From contig JACPND010000033.1 of NCBI GenBank assembly GCA_016185625.1, forward strand, positions 1,496 to 65,495: a DNA stretch of 64,000 bases. The letters are read 5' to 3'. The notes below the pieces were generated by a model. That model did no database searches. It was not told where the DNA came from and saw nothing but the letters and a program-made list of their open reading frames with translations. A program made the position numbers and the translations under genes. Origin of the DNA: Candidatus Woesearchaeota archaeon (GTDB taxonomy: Archaea; Nanobdellota; Nanobdellia; Woesearchaeales; GW2011-AR9). Within the stretch, counting starts at the first letter, position 1, and each line of letters begins with the position of its first letter. Positions 57,672 through 64,000 of the stretch are shown here, piece by piece.

Positions 57672-58367
57672 TTATCGACGAGAAATTTTTTTCTTAAAAA
57701 CAGCAGGATTATTGCTGGCGATGCCGTCAATCCCCCAACTTTCAAATTTGTCGACGAGAGAAGGCTTGTCCACTACCCAGACCGAAACGCAAAAGTTCTG
57801 TTGATGAGCCAGATCAATGAAAGTTTTATTTACCACTTTGTACAATCCGACAAGCCATTCTACCCGAAGATCTTTCGCCCGACGGAGAAATCTCGTCCGA
57901 TTGAATATTCTATCTTTAAAGATCAGTCCCGTGGTTATCGACGGATCCAGTATTTTGATGGCGGCTAATGTCTCCGCACTGAAAGAGATAACCTGCGGAC
58001 GTGCTCCCGCCTTAATTATTTCCTGCACGACAACCTCTTCCATGCCCGGATCTTTGATCTCTACCTGCGGAAGAACTTTGCTTTTCTTGGCTAAAGATAA
58101 GAACTCGGCCAAGGTCGGCAGTTTCTCGCCTTTTCCGGCATCCAAACCTCGTAATTGAGCGAGGGAGAAATCTTTGACCAGACCTTTCCTATTGGTCGTA
58201 CGGTTCAGTGTCTGATCGTGGATGACGATAACTTGATGGTCTTTGGTCAGCCGAACATCGCATTCGATGGCATTGACGCCCATAGTGATGGCTTTCTTCC
58301 AAGAGCGTAAGGTATTCTCCGGTTCATAGTGGGGTGCGCCCCGGTGTCCTACATTCAGAAAAGCCAT
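57672..58367 (-). CDS. ugpQ: glycerophosphodiester phosphodiesterase
   Basis: [44 protein letters not shown] motifs. Confidence 0.85.
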
Positions 58368-58454
58368 GGTACTGCTATTTTTTCTGAATTTAAAAATATT
58401 GCCATAAACTTTAAAAACAGAACTACATTGAGAGACACATTTGGAGGTTCAATC

Positions 58455-59006
58455 ATGGTATCCGGAACAATTATCGGCATTATTATTGGAGCAGTCGTAC
58501 TATTATTTGTGATTTACATCTACAACAGCCTGATCAAGTTAAAGATGCGGGCGAGCAATGCCTGGTCGCAGATTGACGTGCAGCTCAAGCGCCGATACGA
58601 CTTGATTCCTAATTTAGTGAATACGGTCAAAGGCTATATGAAACACGAGAAAGGCGTGCTGGAAGAAGTCACGAAAGCACGAACCTCCCTGATGAGCGGA
58701 TCGATGCAAGCTAAGGCGAAAGCTAATAATCAGATTACCGAAGCTTTGAAGAGCATCTTTGCTGTGGCAGAGAACTATCCGCAGTTGAAAGCTAGTGAGA
58801 ATTTCAGGATCTTGCAGGAAGAGCTATCCGGCACTGAATCGAAGATTGCCTATGCCCGGCAGTTCTATAATGACACCGTGATGCAGCTTAACCAGGCGAT
58901 TCAGTCTTTCCCGACTAATATCTTTGCCAAGCTCTTTGGCGCCCAGCAGCGGGAATTCTTTGAAGCGGCCGAAGGGGAACGGAAGAACGTCAAAGTGGAA
59001 TTTTAA
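58455..59006 (+). CDS. lemA: LemA-family membrane protein
   Basis: N-terminal TM plus LemA domain ([33 protein letters not shown]); GGAGG RBS 7 nt upstream of the internal Met. Confidence 0.8.
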
Positions 59007-59011
59007 TCCTC

Positions 59012-59911
59012 ATGGGCTTGTATGAAGAGATTGCAGGAAATAAGCGCAGGACTTTCTTGCTATTATTTTTCTTTTTTGGATTGGTGGTTTTTCTAGGCTT
59101 GGTCATCGGCCTGATGTACGGCAATCAGTATTTCGGCCTCGGTCTGGCGCTGGTGATCGGTGTGGTGTATTTTTTGATCAGCTATTTCGCTGGCTCTTCG
59201 ATGATTCTAAGCATGACCGGCGCACGGGAAGCGACGAAGCCGGAGTACACGCATCTGATTAACACTGTGGAAGGATTGGCGGTCGCTGCGGGATTGCCCA
59301 AACCGCCGAAAGTGTATGTGATAGATGATTCAGCCTTGAATGCTTTTGCCACGGGCCGGGATCCGGAACACGCCACGATTACCGTCACCACCGGCTTATT
59401 GCAGAAGATGAATCGGTTGGAACTGGAAGGCGTGATTGCGCATGAGATGTCGCACATCAAGAATTTTGACATCCGGGTGATGATGCTGGCGGCAGTGCTG
59501 GTGGGATTGACTGTCTTGTTATCTGACTTTTTATTGCGCTCATTTCTCTGGGGCGGCAAGCGGGATCGCGAGCAGAATCAATTAGGGGTAGTGTTGATTA
59601 TTGTCGGTATTGCGTTAGCGATTCTGGCGCCATTAATCGGAGAATTAATCAAGTTATCCGTCTCCCGGAAACGGGAATTTTTAGCCGATGCCTCCGGTGC
59701 CTTATTGACGCGATATCCGAAGGGATTGGCGGATGCGCTGCGGAAAATAAAACACGATCCTGATCCGTTAGTGGATAAAGCGAATAAGGCGACGGCACAT
59801 CTGTTCATTTCTATGCCCTTCCGCCATGACGGGAAAACGAGCCTGATGCAGAATCTATTCAGCACGCATCCGCCGATTGAGGAAAGGATTAAGAGATTGG
59901 AAGGGATGTGA
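59012..59911 (+). CDS. htpX: M48/HtpX-like zinc metalloprotease
   Basis: HEMSHIKNFD zincin motif between TM segments; paired with lemA. Confidence 0.85.
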   Translation: MGLYEEIAGNKRRTFLLLFFFFGLVVFLGLVIGLMYGNQYFGLGLALVIGVVYFLISYFAGSSMILSMTGAREATKPEYTHLINTVEGLAVAAGLPKPPKVYVIDDSALNAFATGRDPEHATITVTTGLLQKMNRLELEGVIAHEMSHIKNFDIRVMMLAAVLVGLTVLLSDFLLRSFLWGGKRDREQNQLGVVLIIVGIALAILAPLIGELIKLSVSRKREFLADASGALLTRYPKGLADALRKIKHDPDPLVDKANKATAHLFISMPFRHDGKTSLMQNLFSTHPPIEERIKRLEGM

Positions 59912-60375
59912 ATCAATGCTCTCTTGACGAAGTAACTATCAATTCCCACAAATAAGATCCTAAACCGCCTACAAAAGCAAGAACTGAGACAGGGTCAAAA
60001 CTGCATTGCGTACCCGTGTATACAAATGCCAATACTATTAATGATAGCTGAAGAATTCTAAACGTTATTAAAAGAGCCATTGTAAAATTATGCCTATTGC
60101 GCCGATAAGACCAAGGATTAAGAATACTATTTCCATAACGAAAGCAAATTTTCTAAATCCATGGAGTTGGGAGAGTTCTATGTTTTCTACCATTTTTATC
60201 TGAAAAGAACCTATTTATTTAAATTTTCCGCATTTTTTTTAATAATTATGTGGGTTGCAAAATTTAAAATCAAGCGTAAAGCAGAATCGAAGCTTAGGCG
60301 TATTTCCCTCCAGAGGGCTGGCATATGACAGCATAAAGAATAAATAGTGGTTAAAATTTTCTTTCGAAATGGTAA

Positions 60376-60528
60376 CTCAAAAACTCTTTTGGTCCAACCC
60401 CTATCAGACCGAATGCACTGCAACCGTAACCGGAATCAACGGCAATAGAATACGTCTTTCCATCCCGGTCTATCCAAGTCACTTCGTTCGTGGGTTGCCT
60501 GACGGCAACGACCGGTGGTAGGGCGCTC
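60376..60528 (+). pseudogene. possible decayed alaX-like (tRNA_SAD N-domain) gene remnant
   Basis: MVTQKLFWSNPYQTECTATVTGINGNRIRLSIPVYP resembles AlaX-M N-terminus (KLYY.D.Y..EF.A.V....GN.V.LD.T.FYP); terminates after 50 codons, downstream frame lacks HxxxH. Confidence 0.25.
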
Positions 60529-60838
60529 GCAACGTTTGACAAAGCACTCCTGCTCAAAAAAAGCATGCATACAACTGAATTTGTGAAGCTTCTTTCTGCT
60601 GAAACACGGAAAGAGATACGGGAAGTTCCCAAGAAAGAATGGGTTGAGTTCGCAACGGGTGTGCAGAAAGCAGAATGGAAGCGGAAGAAATACTTGACAC
60701 AAGCGTAGCTCTTGACCATAAAGAAGGGATAATTACCATCTTCACACTGGGGATGGTGATTTTGAGCGAATAAAACTGGTGGAACTGAAATTTTTTTTGA
60801 AGTGAAATAACCGCGAAATTTCTCAAGAATCCATTTGC

Positions 60839-63478
60839 TTAAATCTCCTTAATCTTCCTCAGCGTTTCTTCAAAGTATTTCTTCTTTTCTTTCAGCGCCG
60901 TGGGACTTCCGCCGCCATGCCAGGTAAAGCGCGGCCGGACTTGGATGGGAAACAGCCGTTCATTGGCATCGTCAAAGACAATCGCCGATCCGGTTACTTT
61001 GGGCAATTGATCTAATTCCTGATCTAATCCTTTGCGCATGTAACTTTGCATCAGCTGTCCCAGCGCTTCGACATCGAGACGTGCCGTCAGGCGGTGGGCA
61101 AGAACAATATCCGACTGTGTCATTACGTCAGTGTGGATTTTCCCGGGCTGCTGCGATGCCAAAATTAACGAAATGCCCGGCTGACGGCCTTCGCGTAAAA
61201 TGGTGACCAGCGCATCGGTGGCAGCAGTCTTCCCTTCTTTTGGCAAAAGTTCATGCGCTTCATCCAACCCCAGCCAGACCAATGGCTCTTCTAATTTTTC
61301 TTCTGTTTCTTTGGAAAAATAATGCAGCGCGGCATCGACAGTACGAAATTCTTCAGCTTTTCTTGCTACCATGCGTTGATTGAACAAGGAGCGGCAGATC
61401 AGGCCAACCACCAGCGCTTTGATGCTCCAGCCGGAGGCCATGACGGCATAGGGGCTTAAATCCAGCACCGTGACCTGCCCTGCGGAGATAATATCTTTTA
61501 ACGGCGTTCCTTGTTTGGAGAAAATTTCCCACTCGTGGGCTTTTTCAAACTGATTGACAACGATGCTCTTGACGACTTTGTCGCTTTCCGGATCGTTTTG
61601 AAATTCCCGGATCAACTGCTCGATTTCGTAACTGACGCCGGCTCGATTTAATCTCTGAACCACTTTTGTAATCAAGACGCCTTCGGCGGAATTGACATTG
61701 ATTTCAAAAGCATTGCACCAGTCTTCCGGATTGACATCGAGGGGTTGGATGGAGAAGGAGAAATCAGTAGGGATGCCTTCCTCTTTAAAGCGGTTGAAAA
61801 AGCCGGAGGGCGTGTAGATTTTCACAGCTAATGATTTGGGATCAAATCCCCATTGCTTGGCTAGTTCCGCATCCTGAAAGTTTGGATACTTCATCGTCCA
61901 ATAGATGCCCATAGTATCCAGAAGAACGATAGAAAGGTTTTGCTTGATTTCCGCAGGGAGATCGGATAATCCTTCAGCGATGGCGCCCAGCGAGTAGGAG
62001 TTGTGAACGATAATATCATTTGCAACAAAGTTATGTGTTTCTGGAACAGTTAAATCATAAACTTCAAATTCTCCTTCTAATAATTTCATAGAGGTGATTT
62101 CATCCCAAAAGATATCCGAACTGGCAAATTTGGAAAGCAAATCAGATTCATCGGCTAGGGCGACTTGTAGCAAGGTCTGCCGTGAAGGGGAATAATGAAT
62201 CCTTTCACGCATAGCTTTAGGATGTGCATAGCCTAATTTTCTACCAACTTCAGCCCAATTGTCTGGTCGATATAACTCCCAGATCTCTTTAGGAATAGTA
62301 TCAATGTTAGGATTTCTTTTAATGGATGGGGCTTCTTTAAGAGCAAAACAGGCCCGTTCTTCTTTTATTCCATAAAAACCAATTTCTTGTAAGTATTGGT
62401 TAACATTTTCATCATAAACTTCTAATTCATGAGACTTAAATATTTTTCCATTCAATTTAATGTTTTTATTTCTAATCTTTGAAAGAACTCCGAATCTTAA
62501 CAGTAGGTGTTGAACGCCATCAATAATTTCTTTTGAAGAAGAACAATAACTTACAAACCAATGTCCTGCTTTTTTATAAATCGTTCCGTCACATGAGAAT
62601 AACCGATTGAGGAACAGACTTAACTGATGTTTTGGCAATTGGAAGATCTCTTTTGGAATGAATTTTGTCAATGAATTTTTATTATACAAACCAAAACGCC
62701 CTATCCAGTTTCTAATGGAAGAATGAGCAAACTTGGGACCAGCATTAAATCTGCCTAAAACATCTTTTTTACTCTGCTCGGACATGACTTTTTTAATTTG
62801 ACTGACGCGGTAACAACCTTTTTTACCATGCAAATCAACTCTTAAATTAGAATCAAGATACGTTACAGACTGCTTGAATTCTTGCAATATCTTTTCATCC
62901 ATATTGGAAAAAAGCACAAAACCTTTACCTAAATGTCCCTCAGCAATCAAATAAGCTAATAATCTGATTTCATGTTCTGGCATAGAATTTTCCCCAAAAG
63001 CTTCTACTTTTCGTGGTGTCGCAATTCTAGAGCCGAAACCTAGTTTTCCGGCCGGAACCCATCCTTTTACAGTTAAAAGAGGGTGTTCTGATGTAAGTTT
63101 AATGGATCTTCCACTCCTTAAACCAATCTCGATAAGCCGGTTTACCGGTCTTTTGAAGAAGTTACTTTTCTGTCCTTGTTTAATCTTAAGATCTTCGTCA
63201 AGAGTAAAAATATCCTGATCATTATTCTCTAAATCTTTGATTTTAGCTACTGAACCATCATTGAGAGTTATGAGGGTGTCTCCGTGTAGACATTTCCCAC
63301 TTCCCCTTTTGCCGACAATAAACACCACGTGCGCACCAGCAATATCCATAAACACAGGATTGGAAAGAGATGTCGTCTGACCCATCTGGATATACTGCTT
63401 GCCGACGAGGATAGTTCCCTCTTTGCCGTATTTCTCAACGTCCTTCTTACTTCTCCCGATGATGACCTCAAAGACCAT
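60839..63478 (-). CDS. HerA/FtsK-superfamily (DUF87/AAA_10-type) P-loop ATPase interrupted by an intein
   Basis: Extein: Walker A VVFIVGKRGSGK|S (reconstituted), VLDLSPY, Walker B LVWLGLDEAHELL, REGRQPGISLILASQQPGKI...DIVLAHRL. Confidence 0.75.
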   Translation of the reverse strand: MVFEVIIGRSKKDVEKYGKEGTILVGKQYIQMGQTTSLSNPVFMDIAGAHVVFIVGKRGSGKCLHGDTLITLNDGSVAKIKDLENNDQDIFTLDEDLKIKQGQKSNFFKRPVNRLIEIGLRSGRSIKLTSEHPLLTVKGWVPAGKLGFGSRIATPRKVEAFGENSMPEHEIRLLAYLIAEGHLGKGFVLFSNMDEKILQEFKQSVTYLDSNLRVDLHGKKGCYRVSQIKKVMSEQSKKDVLGRFNAGPKFAHSSIRNWIGRFGLYNKNSLTKFIPKEIFQLPKHQLSLFLNRLFSCDGTIYKKAGHWFVSYCSSSKEIIDGVQHLLLRFGVLSKIRNKNIKLNGKIFKSHELEVYDENVNQYLQEIGFYGIKEERACFALKEAPSIKRNPNIDTIPKEIWELYRPDNWAEVGRKLGYAHPKAMRERIHYSPSRQTLLQVALADESDLLSKFASSDIFWDEITSMKLLEGEFEVYDLTVPETHNFVANDIIVHNSYSLGAIAEGLSDLPAEIKQNLSIVLLDTMGIYWTMKYPNFQDAELAKQWGFDPKSLAVKIYTPSGFFNRFKEEGIPTDFSFSIQPLDVNPEDWCNAFEINVNSAEGVLITKVVQRLNRAGVSYEIEQLIREFQNDPESDKVVKSIVVNQFEKAHEWEIFSKQGTPLKDIISAGQVTVLDLSPYAVMASGWSIKALVVGLICRSLFNQRMVARKAEEFRTVDAALHYFSKETEEKLEEPLVWLGLDEAHELLPKEGKTAATDALVTILREGRQPGISLILASQQPGKIHTDVMTQSDIVLAHRLTARLDVEALGQLMQSYMRKGLDQELDQLPKVTGSAIVFDDANERLFPIQVRPRFTWHGGGSPTALKEKKKYFEETLRKIKEI
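62000..63292 (-). other. intein (431 aa) with LAGLIDADG homing-endonuclease domain inside the Walker A motif
   Basis: Starts CLHGDTLITLNDGS right after GSGK; LAGLIDADG-like blocks LLAYLIAEGHLGKG and LNRLFSCDGTIYKK; ends ...NDIIVHN followed by +1 Ser (SYSLGAI). Confidence 0.75.
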
Positions 63479-63563: not shown

Positions 63564-63983
63564 TTATGCCAGCAATTCATCCGTCACGATGTTCACTCGG
63601 CTCGGCTCTTTGACTTTGCTGCTGGTGCCGATCACATGGCGGATGCCGACACGCTCCGCTAAGCGAATCAAATCAATATCTACCGCTCCGTCAATCGCTA
63701 AGGCATACACGCCGCCTTCTAAGCTTCTCAACGTCGTCGCCAGTTCTGTCAAAGGAACCTTGCCTAAGATATTTAATTTTTGATCAAAGATGCACGCCCC
63801 GTGGGTGCCAAAGAGATCTTCCAAAGTTTTCTTGAACAGTCCTTTTTCTTCTTCAGCAAGCCTTCTGGGAGCTTCAGTCGGACTCGGCCGGGCAAAAGGC
63901 TGCGACCGTGGTTGCTGCATGGCTGGACGAGCTGGCATCGGTGATCCTGCCTGTCGCTGCGGCATCGGAGGCCGTTGGCCCAT
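63564..63983 (-). CDS. hypothetical protein, P/Q-rich N-terminus plus conserved C-terminal alpha/beta domain; may extend past window end
   Basis: ORF track; ALAIDGAVDIDLIRLAERVGIRHVIGT block. Confidence 0.3.
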   Translation of the reverse strand: MGQRPPMPQRQAGSPMPARPAMQQPRSQPFARPSPTEAPRRLAEEEKGLFKKTLEDLFGTHGACIFDQKLNILGKVPLTELATTLRSLEGGVYALAIDGAVDIDLIRLAERVGIRHVIGTSSKVKEPSRVNIVTDELLA

Positions 63984-64000
63984 CCGTTTGGTGCCGTTTT

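Follow-up and report, generated by a model that had tools for sequence, protein, structure and literature searches.

A class 1 intein with a LAGLIDADG endonuclease at the P-loop of a HerA-like ATPase gene of Woesearchaeota

The stretch of DNA analysed here (the window) comprises 64,000 nucleotides from a Candidatus Woesearchaeota archaeon (contig JACPND010000033.1, positions 1,496 to 65,495) and contains, on the reverse strand, a complete precursor gene (60839..63478, 879 codons and a stop codon) of a HerA-like (DUF87) ATPase which is split by one intein. The N-extein (63293..63478, residues 1-62), the intein (62000..63292, precursor residues 63-493, 431 amino acids) and the C-extein (60839..61999, 386 amino acids and the stop codon) follow one another on this strand, on which all further features of the gene also lie. 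The N-extein has as its C-terminal end the first seven Walker A residues, GKRGSGK (63293..63313), whereas the C-extein begins with Ser494 (61997..61999) and carries the Walker B motif LGLDEAHE (61250..61273). Translation gave the junctions as ...VVFIVGKRGSGK / CLHGDTLITL ... NDIIVHN / SYSLGAIAEG... (a slash marks a splice point here and below), so that the intein sits between Lys62 and Ser494, which are the Lys and Ser of Walker A, GKRGSGK/S. The intein coordinates, the junctions, the intein length and the 879-residue open reading frame (ORF) given in the initial annotation were reproduced exactly by translation, including its placement of the insert within the P-loop. Ser494 has a double role, as the Walker A serine of GKS and as the +1 nucleophile of splicing. 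When the insert is removed, a protein of 448 residues with the Walker A motif GKRGSGKS and the Walker B motif LGLDEAHE is obtained, as had been proposed. The reconstituted intein-free site of the ATPase gene reads GTCGGCAAAAGGGGAAGTGGGAAA / TCCTACTCGCTGGGCGCCATCGCT, and GTCGGCAAAAGGGGAAGTGGGAAATCCTACTCGCTGGGCGCCATCGCT is an example of a synthetic intein-free site. The precursor product is identical to NCBI entry MBI2669235.1, annotated as 'hypothetical protein HYX14_05315 [Candidatus Woesearchaeota archaeon]'.

The insert is a canonical class 1 intein (Cys1 ... His-Asn, +1 Ser) in the classic P-loop niche. The Pfam Intein_splicing profile matched residues 70-493, spanning the nested endonuclease (1.4e-24, 87 bits, cut-off 35.8), and the NCBIfam models TIGR01445 intein_Nterm (residues 63-136, 1.7e-13, 51 bits, cut-off 24.5) and TIGR01443 intein_Cterm (6.9e-10, 38.9 bits, cut-off 15.6) were likewise found above their cut-offs. 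The splicing (HINT) blocks A, B, F and G were all identified. Block A, CLHGDTLITLNDG (63254..63292), and block B, KLTSEHPLLT with its TxxH motif (63071..63100), belong to the N-terminal half of the splicing domain (62993..63292), which is supported by TIGR01445, by the match to the structure 1mi8 and by conservation. The C-terminal part (62000..62122), supported by TIGR01443 and by the conserved D413, H430 and N431, contains block F, VYDLTVPETHNFVAN (62018..62062), and block G, DIIVHN (62000..62017); the limits of the splicing domain were taken from the secondary structure of an AlphaFold model and are approximate. Conservation was counted in an alignment of 51 rows, namely the window intein and 50 homologues. 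Cys1 (Cys63 of the precursor) is Cys in 50 of the 51 rows, block B (T67-S-E-H70) has its Thr in 50/51 and its His in 51/51, D413 is present in every row and both H430 and N431 in 50/51, and the +1 residue is Ser or Thr in 49 of the 50 homologues. The class 1 splicing residues C1, T67, H70, D413, H430, N431 and +1 Ser/Thr are thus kept in 47-51 of the 51 rows, the Cys1, HN end and +1 Ser of the initial annotation among them, and the window intein is probably splicing-competent.

Between the N- and C-terminal HINT halves a homing endonuclease (HE) is inserted, as seen in the AlphaFold model and in Foldseek comparisons. Its LAGLIDADG core (62414..62992) is defined by Pfam LAGLIDADG_3 (1.7e-18, cut-off 22.5), by conservation and by fold. 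Motif 1, LLAYLIAEGH (62933..62962), holds the catalytic Glu118 and motif 2, FLNRLFSCDGT (62582..62614), the catalytic Asp235; the residue is acidic in 49/51 rows at position 118 and in 51/51 at position 235, and the Gly which follows is found in 50/51 and 51/51 rows, respectively. Lys210 of the endonuclease is also conserved (48 of 51 rows). The two LAGLIDADG-like blocks noticed earlier are therefore borne out by the profile match, both acidic residues and the HE-intein fold. The endonuclease core is followed by a helical accessory region (62123..62413, helices 295-390 of the model), after which come the C-terminal splicing strands. By analogy, this helical stretch plausibly corresponds to the accessory domain of the VMA-b inteins (PMC8966425), and it probably binds DNA. 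The AlphaFold model of the intein, built on the 51-row alignment, has a predicted local distance difference test score (pLDDT) of 95.2 and a predicted template modelling score (pTM) of 0.92. At full length its Foldseek matches were HE-inteins, with TliVMA 7qss as the best (E 5.6e-25, template modelling score (TM) 0.68), followed by PI-PfuI, PI-TkoII and PI-SceI, the last three of which the fold of the endonuclease core also resembles. The splicing halves matched mini-inteins, namely 1mi8 and 4o1r (Ssp/Npu DnaB) and Mtu RecA, with a root mean square deviation of 1.4-1.7 Å at best.

The exteins form one continuous protein. The spliced product of 448 residues and intein-free orthologues of the same length can be aligned with 100% coverage of the product at 73-79% identity, an identity range shared by hundreds of intein-free proteins of Woesearchaeota/Nanoarchaeota, and the N-termini at related loci have 81-89% identity to the N-extein. 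With the HINT blocks present and the flanks aligning in this way, neither of the refuting outcomes named in the initial annotation was seen. A search with the spliced sequence gave at least 5,864 relatives; the best 120 are 72-79% identical to it, 116 of them have no insert, nearly all of these being 443-451 residues long, and those with a name carry the label 'ATP-binding protein' or 'DUF87 domain-containing protein' (Woesearchaeota/Nanoarchaeota). With the insert removed, and only then, Pfam DUF87 ('Helicase HerA, central domain') was detected (1.9e-10, 41.7 bits, cut-off 23.2). The initial annotation was right about the presence of a DUF87 domain and somewhat loose in speaking of a C-terminal block, as DUF87 was matched by residues 52-246 of the spliced protein, its N-terminal/central part, and the C-terminal part gave only sub-threshold HerA_C/FtsK matches. 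All 117 family columns with at least 90% conservation are kept in the window exteins, from which it follows that selection acts on the host gene and that its function depends on splicing. This agrees with the site of the insertion, since the Walker A motif is broken in the precursor and the GKS serine is the +1 nucleophile, so the ATPase must be spliced to work.

The host is best called a HerA-like ATPase on its sequence and modelled fold. The fold was studied on a model of an intein-free orthologue (P0001, 79% identical, pLDDT 86) as a proxy for the window protein, and all of its top 44 Foldseek matches were of HerA type (TM about 0.6), the best being the T. kodakarensis HerA-NurA structure 9x1m (E 9e-20) and S. 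solfataricus 4d2i. The PDB sequence search of the host also gave exclusively HerA proteins as top matches. In common with HerA, the hexameric translocases of double-strand-break repair or anti-phage function, the host has DUF87, the HerA fold, Walker A, the Walker B motif DEAH and a C-terminal RecA-like core. On the other hand, it has only 448 residues, with about 50 residues before Walker A, and its conserved neighbour is dnaG, not nurA. The scores against the NCBIfam HerA equivalog models are far below their thresholds (NF040819, 36.6 bits against 970; NF040937, 29 against 800; NF042944, 46 against 850), and NurA was not seen adjacent to the ATPase gene, where the neighbouring genes only were looked at. 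A bona fide HerA was hence rejected as the identity of the host, because the equivalog models fail and the NurA partner is not adjacent. Separately, one homologue of 923 residues (P0255) is a tandem duplication of the entire HerA-like ATPase, having two complete Walker A/B modules and no intein.

Taken together, it is very likely that the locus encodes the precursor of a DPANN HerA-like ATPase which is split by a self-excising class 1 intein with a homing endonuclease. The unspliced precursor would be inactive, with its Walker A loop broken between Lys62 and Ser494. Splicing would begin with an N-S acyl shift at Cys1 and continue with trans-esterification onto the +1 Ser and with cyclisation of Asn431, helped by His430; a final O-N shift would rejoin GKRGSGK to S and yield the functional ATPase of 448 residues. 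The freed intein would then act as a two-motif LAGLIDADG endonuclease, predicted to cut the intein-free allele at the P-loop codons, and repair of the cut allele would copy the intein in (homing) in a cell which also holds an intein-free allele.

The distribution of the intein bears on its mobility. A scan of GTDB species genomes gave a best set of 80 loci, of which 79 contain both exteins; inteins are under-represented in this set, since split matches receive lower scores. No insert is present in 72 of the 79 loci and seven carry one: four have inteins of 428-429 residues at the same GK/S site which are 50-71% identical to the window intein, one has a mini-intein of 167 residues at GK/S, and two have unrelated inteins of 370 residues (23-25% identity) three codons upstream, at GKRG/SGKS. 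For each intein-bearing allele among these loci, the nearest extein relative is intein-free. Furthermore, loci L042 and L045 share 77% identity in their inteins and 75% in their exteins, whereas L041 and L042 have inteins of 55% and exteins of 79% identity, so the divergence of the inteins does not track that of the exteins. The window intein has a GC content of 35.3% and a GC content at third codon positions (GC3) of 0.28, against 48.6% and 0.56 in the exteins and 45% in the window overall. In 8/8 alleles examined the intein is richer in AT than the host, and the GC3 gap is greatest in the window allele. The patchy distribution, the incongruent divergence and the deviant GC3 point to horizontal spread by homing, and judging from its composition the intein probably spread in this way from a lower-GC Woesearchaeal relative. 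With its catalytic residues intact, the endonuclease is plausibly active and the intein still mobile, as the initial annotation suggested in calling homing possibly active. A search of the window with the intein (tblastn) gave no second related intein.

Several observations weigh against such a mobile intein of recent arrival. The low GC content was seen in all eight alleles and may to some extent be characteristic of the element itself instead of a sign that it arrived recently. The closest intein found is merely 86% identical and a near-identical intein-free allele of the same species was not found, so a recent homing event is not demonstrable. The window flanks differ from those of intein-free alleles by 5-16 mismatches per 30 bp, at synonymous sites. 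A conserved DNA homing site was sought in 71 intein-free alleles and only codon positions 1 and 2 were conserved; since these are the protein-constrained bases, no DNA target can be inferred beyond them. Moreover, intact catalytic residues are no guarantee of endonuclease activity.

A different possibility is that the intein is splicing-competent and its endonuclease dead or idle. The element would then be a passenger near the end of the homing cycle, passed on by vertical inheritance and kept only since loss of splicing would kill the ATPase. Degeneration does occur in this lineage, as related genomes have site-b (GSGK/S) mini-inteins of 160-187 residues from which the endonuclease has been lost (P0102/L040, P0243, P0259 and P0273), and the distance to the closest full-length relative fits as well. 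At the VMA-b site active and degenerate endonucleases both occur (PMC8966425): TliVMA is a P-loop (VMA-b) intein whose endonuclease has been demonstrated to be active, whereas PhoVMA has kept the HE fold without activity, its active-site aspartates being lost (PMC8966425). However, the window intein and its homologues have kept the two LAGLIDADG acidic residues and the conserved Lys, unlike the case of PhoVMA, and a GC3 of half that of the host gene, the patchy distribution and the incongruent divergence are not what such a passenger would lead one to expect. We therefore regard an inactive endonuclease as unlikely, though it is the strongest of the alternatives to a mobile intein.

A further possibility is conditional splicing, where the intein would have been co-opted as a post-translational switch which holds the ATPase inactive until conditions are suitable, for example by way of a redox-sensitive Cys1; such a role has been proposed for P-loop inteins of DnaB and for RadA. 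The broken catalytic loop would leave the precursor unable to bind or hydrolyse ATP, and the window intein is related to the DnaB inteins; conditional splicing is documented for the inteins M. smegmatis DnaBi1 (PMC6195587) and P. horikoshii RadA (PMC4513877), and Novikova et al. argue that P-loop inteins are selectively retained (PMC4760082). However, the sequence gives no specific sign of regulation, and with intein-free orthologues at 72 of 79 loci any regulation would be lineage-specific at best. Such control, which appears quite improbable here, would in any case be an addition to the self-excising, homing intein and not an alternative to it. A chimeric metagenome assembly, or a non-splicing insert that inactivated the gene, could be suspected in a metagenome-assembled genome where the GC content of the insert is sharply unlike that of its flanks, but both were rejected and are hardly credible, as the in-frame junctions fall exactly at the canonical Cys1 and HN/S, no stop codon interrupts the 431 AT-rich codons of the insert, genes built in the same way are found in many independent genomes, none of the 117 conserved positions is lost from the exteins, and the identical 879-residue protein is recorded on two contigs (listed sources NCBI and Logan), which speaks against mis-assembly provided that the contigs stem from separate assemblies.

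The closest relative of the intein is an intein of Woesearchaeota (P0121, 86% identical), and dozens more hits lie in orthologous ATPases of Woesearchaeota, Nanoarchaeia, Diapherotrites, Pacearchaeota and Parvarchaeota. All these orthologues are interrupted at GKRGxGK/C...HN/SY, with inteins of 42-72% identity and with exteins which are down to 30% identical to those of the window; many of the hits are contig-end fragments. The JGI label 'replicative DNA helicase' is wrong for several of them and arises because of the DnaB-like intein. The next tier, with 30-37% identity across the whole 431 residues, is formed by inteins of bacterial DnaB, including one example from Patescibacteria. The strongest NCBIfam match of the intein is the intein part of the intein-containing DnaB model PRK07773 (1e-72), and among PDB sequences the Ssp DnaB mini-intein 1mi8 came first (E 2.4e-20).

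The DnaB-b inteins are thus the closest relatives outside the orthologous host, endonuclease included. They occupy the same Walker A position, ARPSxGK/C...HN/S or T, and site b of DnaB is a P-loop site which is analogous to MCM-a and RFC-a (Novikova et al., PMC4760082). The host of DnaB-b is a bacterial helicase of superfamily 4 (SF4) with a RecA fold, whereas that of the window intein is an archaeal ATPase of the HerA/FtsK superfamily, and the window intein has Ser at +1, followed by Tyr. The same intein lineage is also found at the DnaB H4 site (RESG/SIEQD, P0224) and in a GRRVGK/TE ATPase, and its occurrence at several sites shows that it is not tied to one. The flanks of P0224 match the Ssp DnaB junction, which we take to be the H4 site, and the comparison with DnaB-b therefore rests on the other DnaB hits. 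As an additional observation, six inteins of about 34-37% identity (P0214, P0216, P0226, P0237, P0204 and P0213) lie at GK/T or GK/S of other P-loop proteins, with flanks that include RIAARMGRRVGK/TETMVV (possibly terminase-like) and AGEANIGK/SLFISQ.

A comparison was also made with TliVMA and PhoVMA, the archaeal VMA-b inteins of V-type ATPase subunit A, which are likewise P-loop inserts of similar size (429 residues). The architecture of HINT domain, LAGLIDADG endonuclease and accessory domain is common to them and to the window intein. On the other hand, the sequence identity is only 18-20%, and they are unlike the window intein in host protein and in accessory domain.

Further intein sites were identified in the HerA-like family when representatives of 50%-identity clusters were searched exhaustively with the intein-free orthologue P0001 as query. 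Many orthologue clusters carry inserts, which fall at three sites and comprise mini, full-length and double-intein alleles. Site a lies in Walker A, at GKRG/SGKS (inserts of 141-372 residues); site b, also in Walker A, at GSGK/S (160-437 residues, rarely about 600); and site c in Walker B, at VDE/C...HN/CHEF, where LAGLIDADG inserts of 444-449 residues are found and the +1 Cys takes the place of Ala in DEAH. Site c is exemplified by P0245, P0253, P0248, P0250, P0270 and P0308, of which P0248 (1071 residues), P0250 (1308 residues) and P0270 (1300 residues) are double-intein alleles with b and c both occupied. The window allele carries site b only. The site-a lineage, unrelated to the window intein (23-25% identical), has full-length members of 370 residues and mini-inteins of 141-148 residues, and is carried at L039 (2059..4512) and L046 (3720..6104) and by P0066, P0079, P0087, P0246, P0251 and P0254. 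With three codons between site a and site b, insertion at either destroys the target of the other, and the two were never occupied together in any allele of the small sample examined. This echoes the interference between neighbouring inteins which has been described for MCM (PMC10643990). With its three sites and its b/c double-intein alleles, the HerA-like family resembles the multi-site hosts haloarchaeal MCM (a-e), DnaB (a-c) and RFC-S (a-d), in which several sites lie in conserved ATPase motifs with patchy occupancy (PMC4760082; PMC10643990), though its sites a and b are separated by only three codons.

The above results can be joined into a broader picture, which we put forward tentatively and with rather more doubt than confidence. 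The dnaG-syntenic DPANN HerA-like ATPase would be an unrecognised intein hot spot like MCM and DnaB, and the site-b lineage would have jumped between domains of life. Inteins of sites a, b and c may have been exchanged among Woesearchaeota, Diapherotrites, Pacearchaeota and related lineages, and the GK/S or GK/T P-loop codons may be an ectopic homing site which links HerA-like ATPases, bacterial DnaB (including that of the candidate phyla radiation, CPR) and terminase-like ATPases. If this is true, the ATPase family would lend itself, as a natural test bed, to studying how adjacent inteins compete and how P-loop hopping across hosts proceeds.

The initial annotation regarded HerA/FtsK-type ATPases as a less commonly reported intein host. 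This holds for the searched literature, in which no paper linking inteins with HerA-like, DUF87 or COG0433 ATPases and none treating inteins of Woesearchaeota or DPANN was found, and the terms HerA, DUF87 and FtsK each have 0 occurrences in the main text of the intein survey PMC4760082. It does not hold for the sequence data, with dozens of intein-bearing DPANN orthologues and three sites. The window intein is therefore genuine and of an ordinary kind, in a host family which is absent from the searched literature but often intein-bearing in public sequence data. It changes no concept in intein biology, and the added value is modest: an intein-rich, unreported host family with three catalytic-motif sites and an intein lineage held in common with bacterial DnaB at the P-loop. 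Both a host family and the little-studied DPANN/Woesearchaeota are thereby added to the pattern of inteins that target the catalytic loops of P-loop ATPases. Annotations in need of correction are the NCBI 'hypothetical protein' of the 879-residue gene and the JGI 'replicative DNA helicase' of several orthologues, and it should be kept in mind that metagenome assemblies often break within these inteins and so yield many partial 'LAGLIDADG endonuclease' fragments. The inteins of 50-86% identity, the mini-inteins at the same site and the second lineage three codons away form a useful natural series, which can be used for studies of the homing cycle and of interference between neighbouring inteins and as a source of new splicing or meganuclease reagents.

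The gene neighbourhood was also analysed. Upstream of the ATPase gene, an ORF on the reverse strand (63564..64000) runs off the end of the window and is the 3' end of an archaeal DnaG primase gene. Its 139 residues match the C-terminal positions 319-419 of NCBIfam NF003108, and the related locus L002 has the full DnaG of 453 residues; Pfam gave no match for this ORF and the PDB sequence search was uninformative. As dnaG adjoins the HerA-like ATPase gene in 53 of 80 related loci, this pairing, apparently undescribed, hints at a functional link. Downstream lies a lemA-htpX pair on the forward strand (58329..59911; htpX, Peptidase_M48, 59012..59911). Among the 80 related loci htpX is near the ATPase gene in 28 and lemA in 11, and in some relatives (L042, L052) htpX comes after the ATPase gene at a distance of no more than about 15-35 bp. 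The gap of about 930 bp between htpX and the ATPase stop codon (59912..60838) has no convincing gene, and a permissive Rfam scan of it gave no match; the whole window, scanned with Rfam at the gathering threshold and for tRNAs, was likewise without match. The gap does hold a remnant on the forward strand (60369..60473), in which only the 35 initial codons of an AlaX-like gene survive, with 60% identity to the intact counterpart at L002 (6358..7014); this remnant looks like a decayed pseudogene. Genes for CDP-archaeol synthase and for diphthamide synthesis are found nearby, which is consistent with an archaeon.

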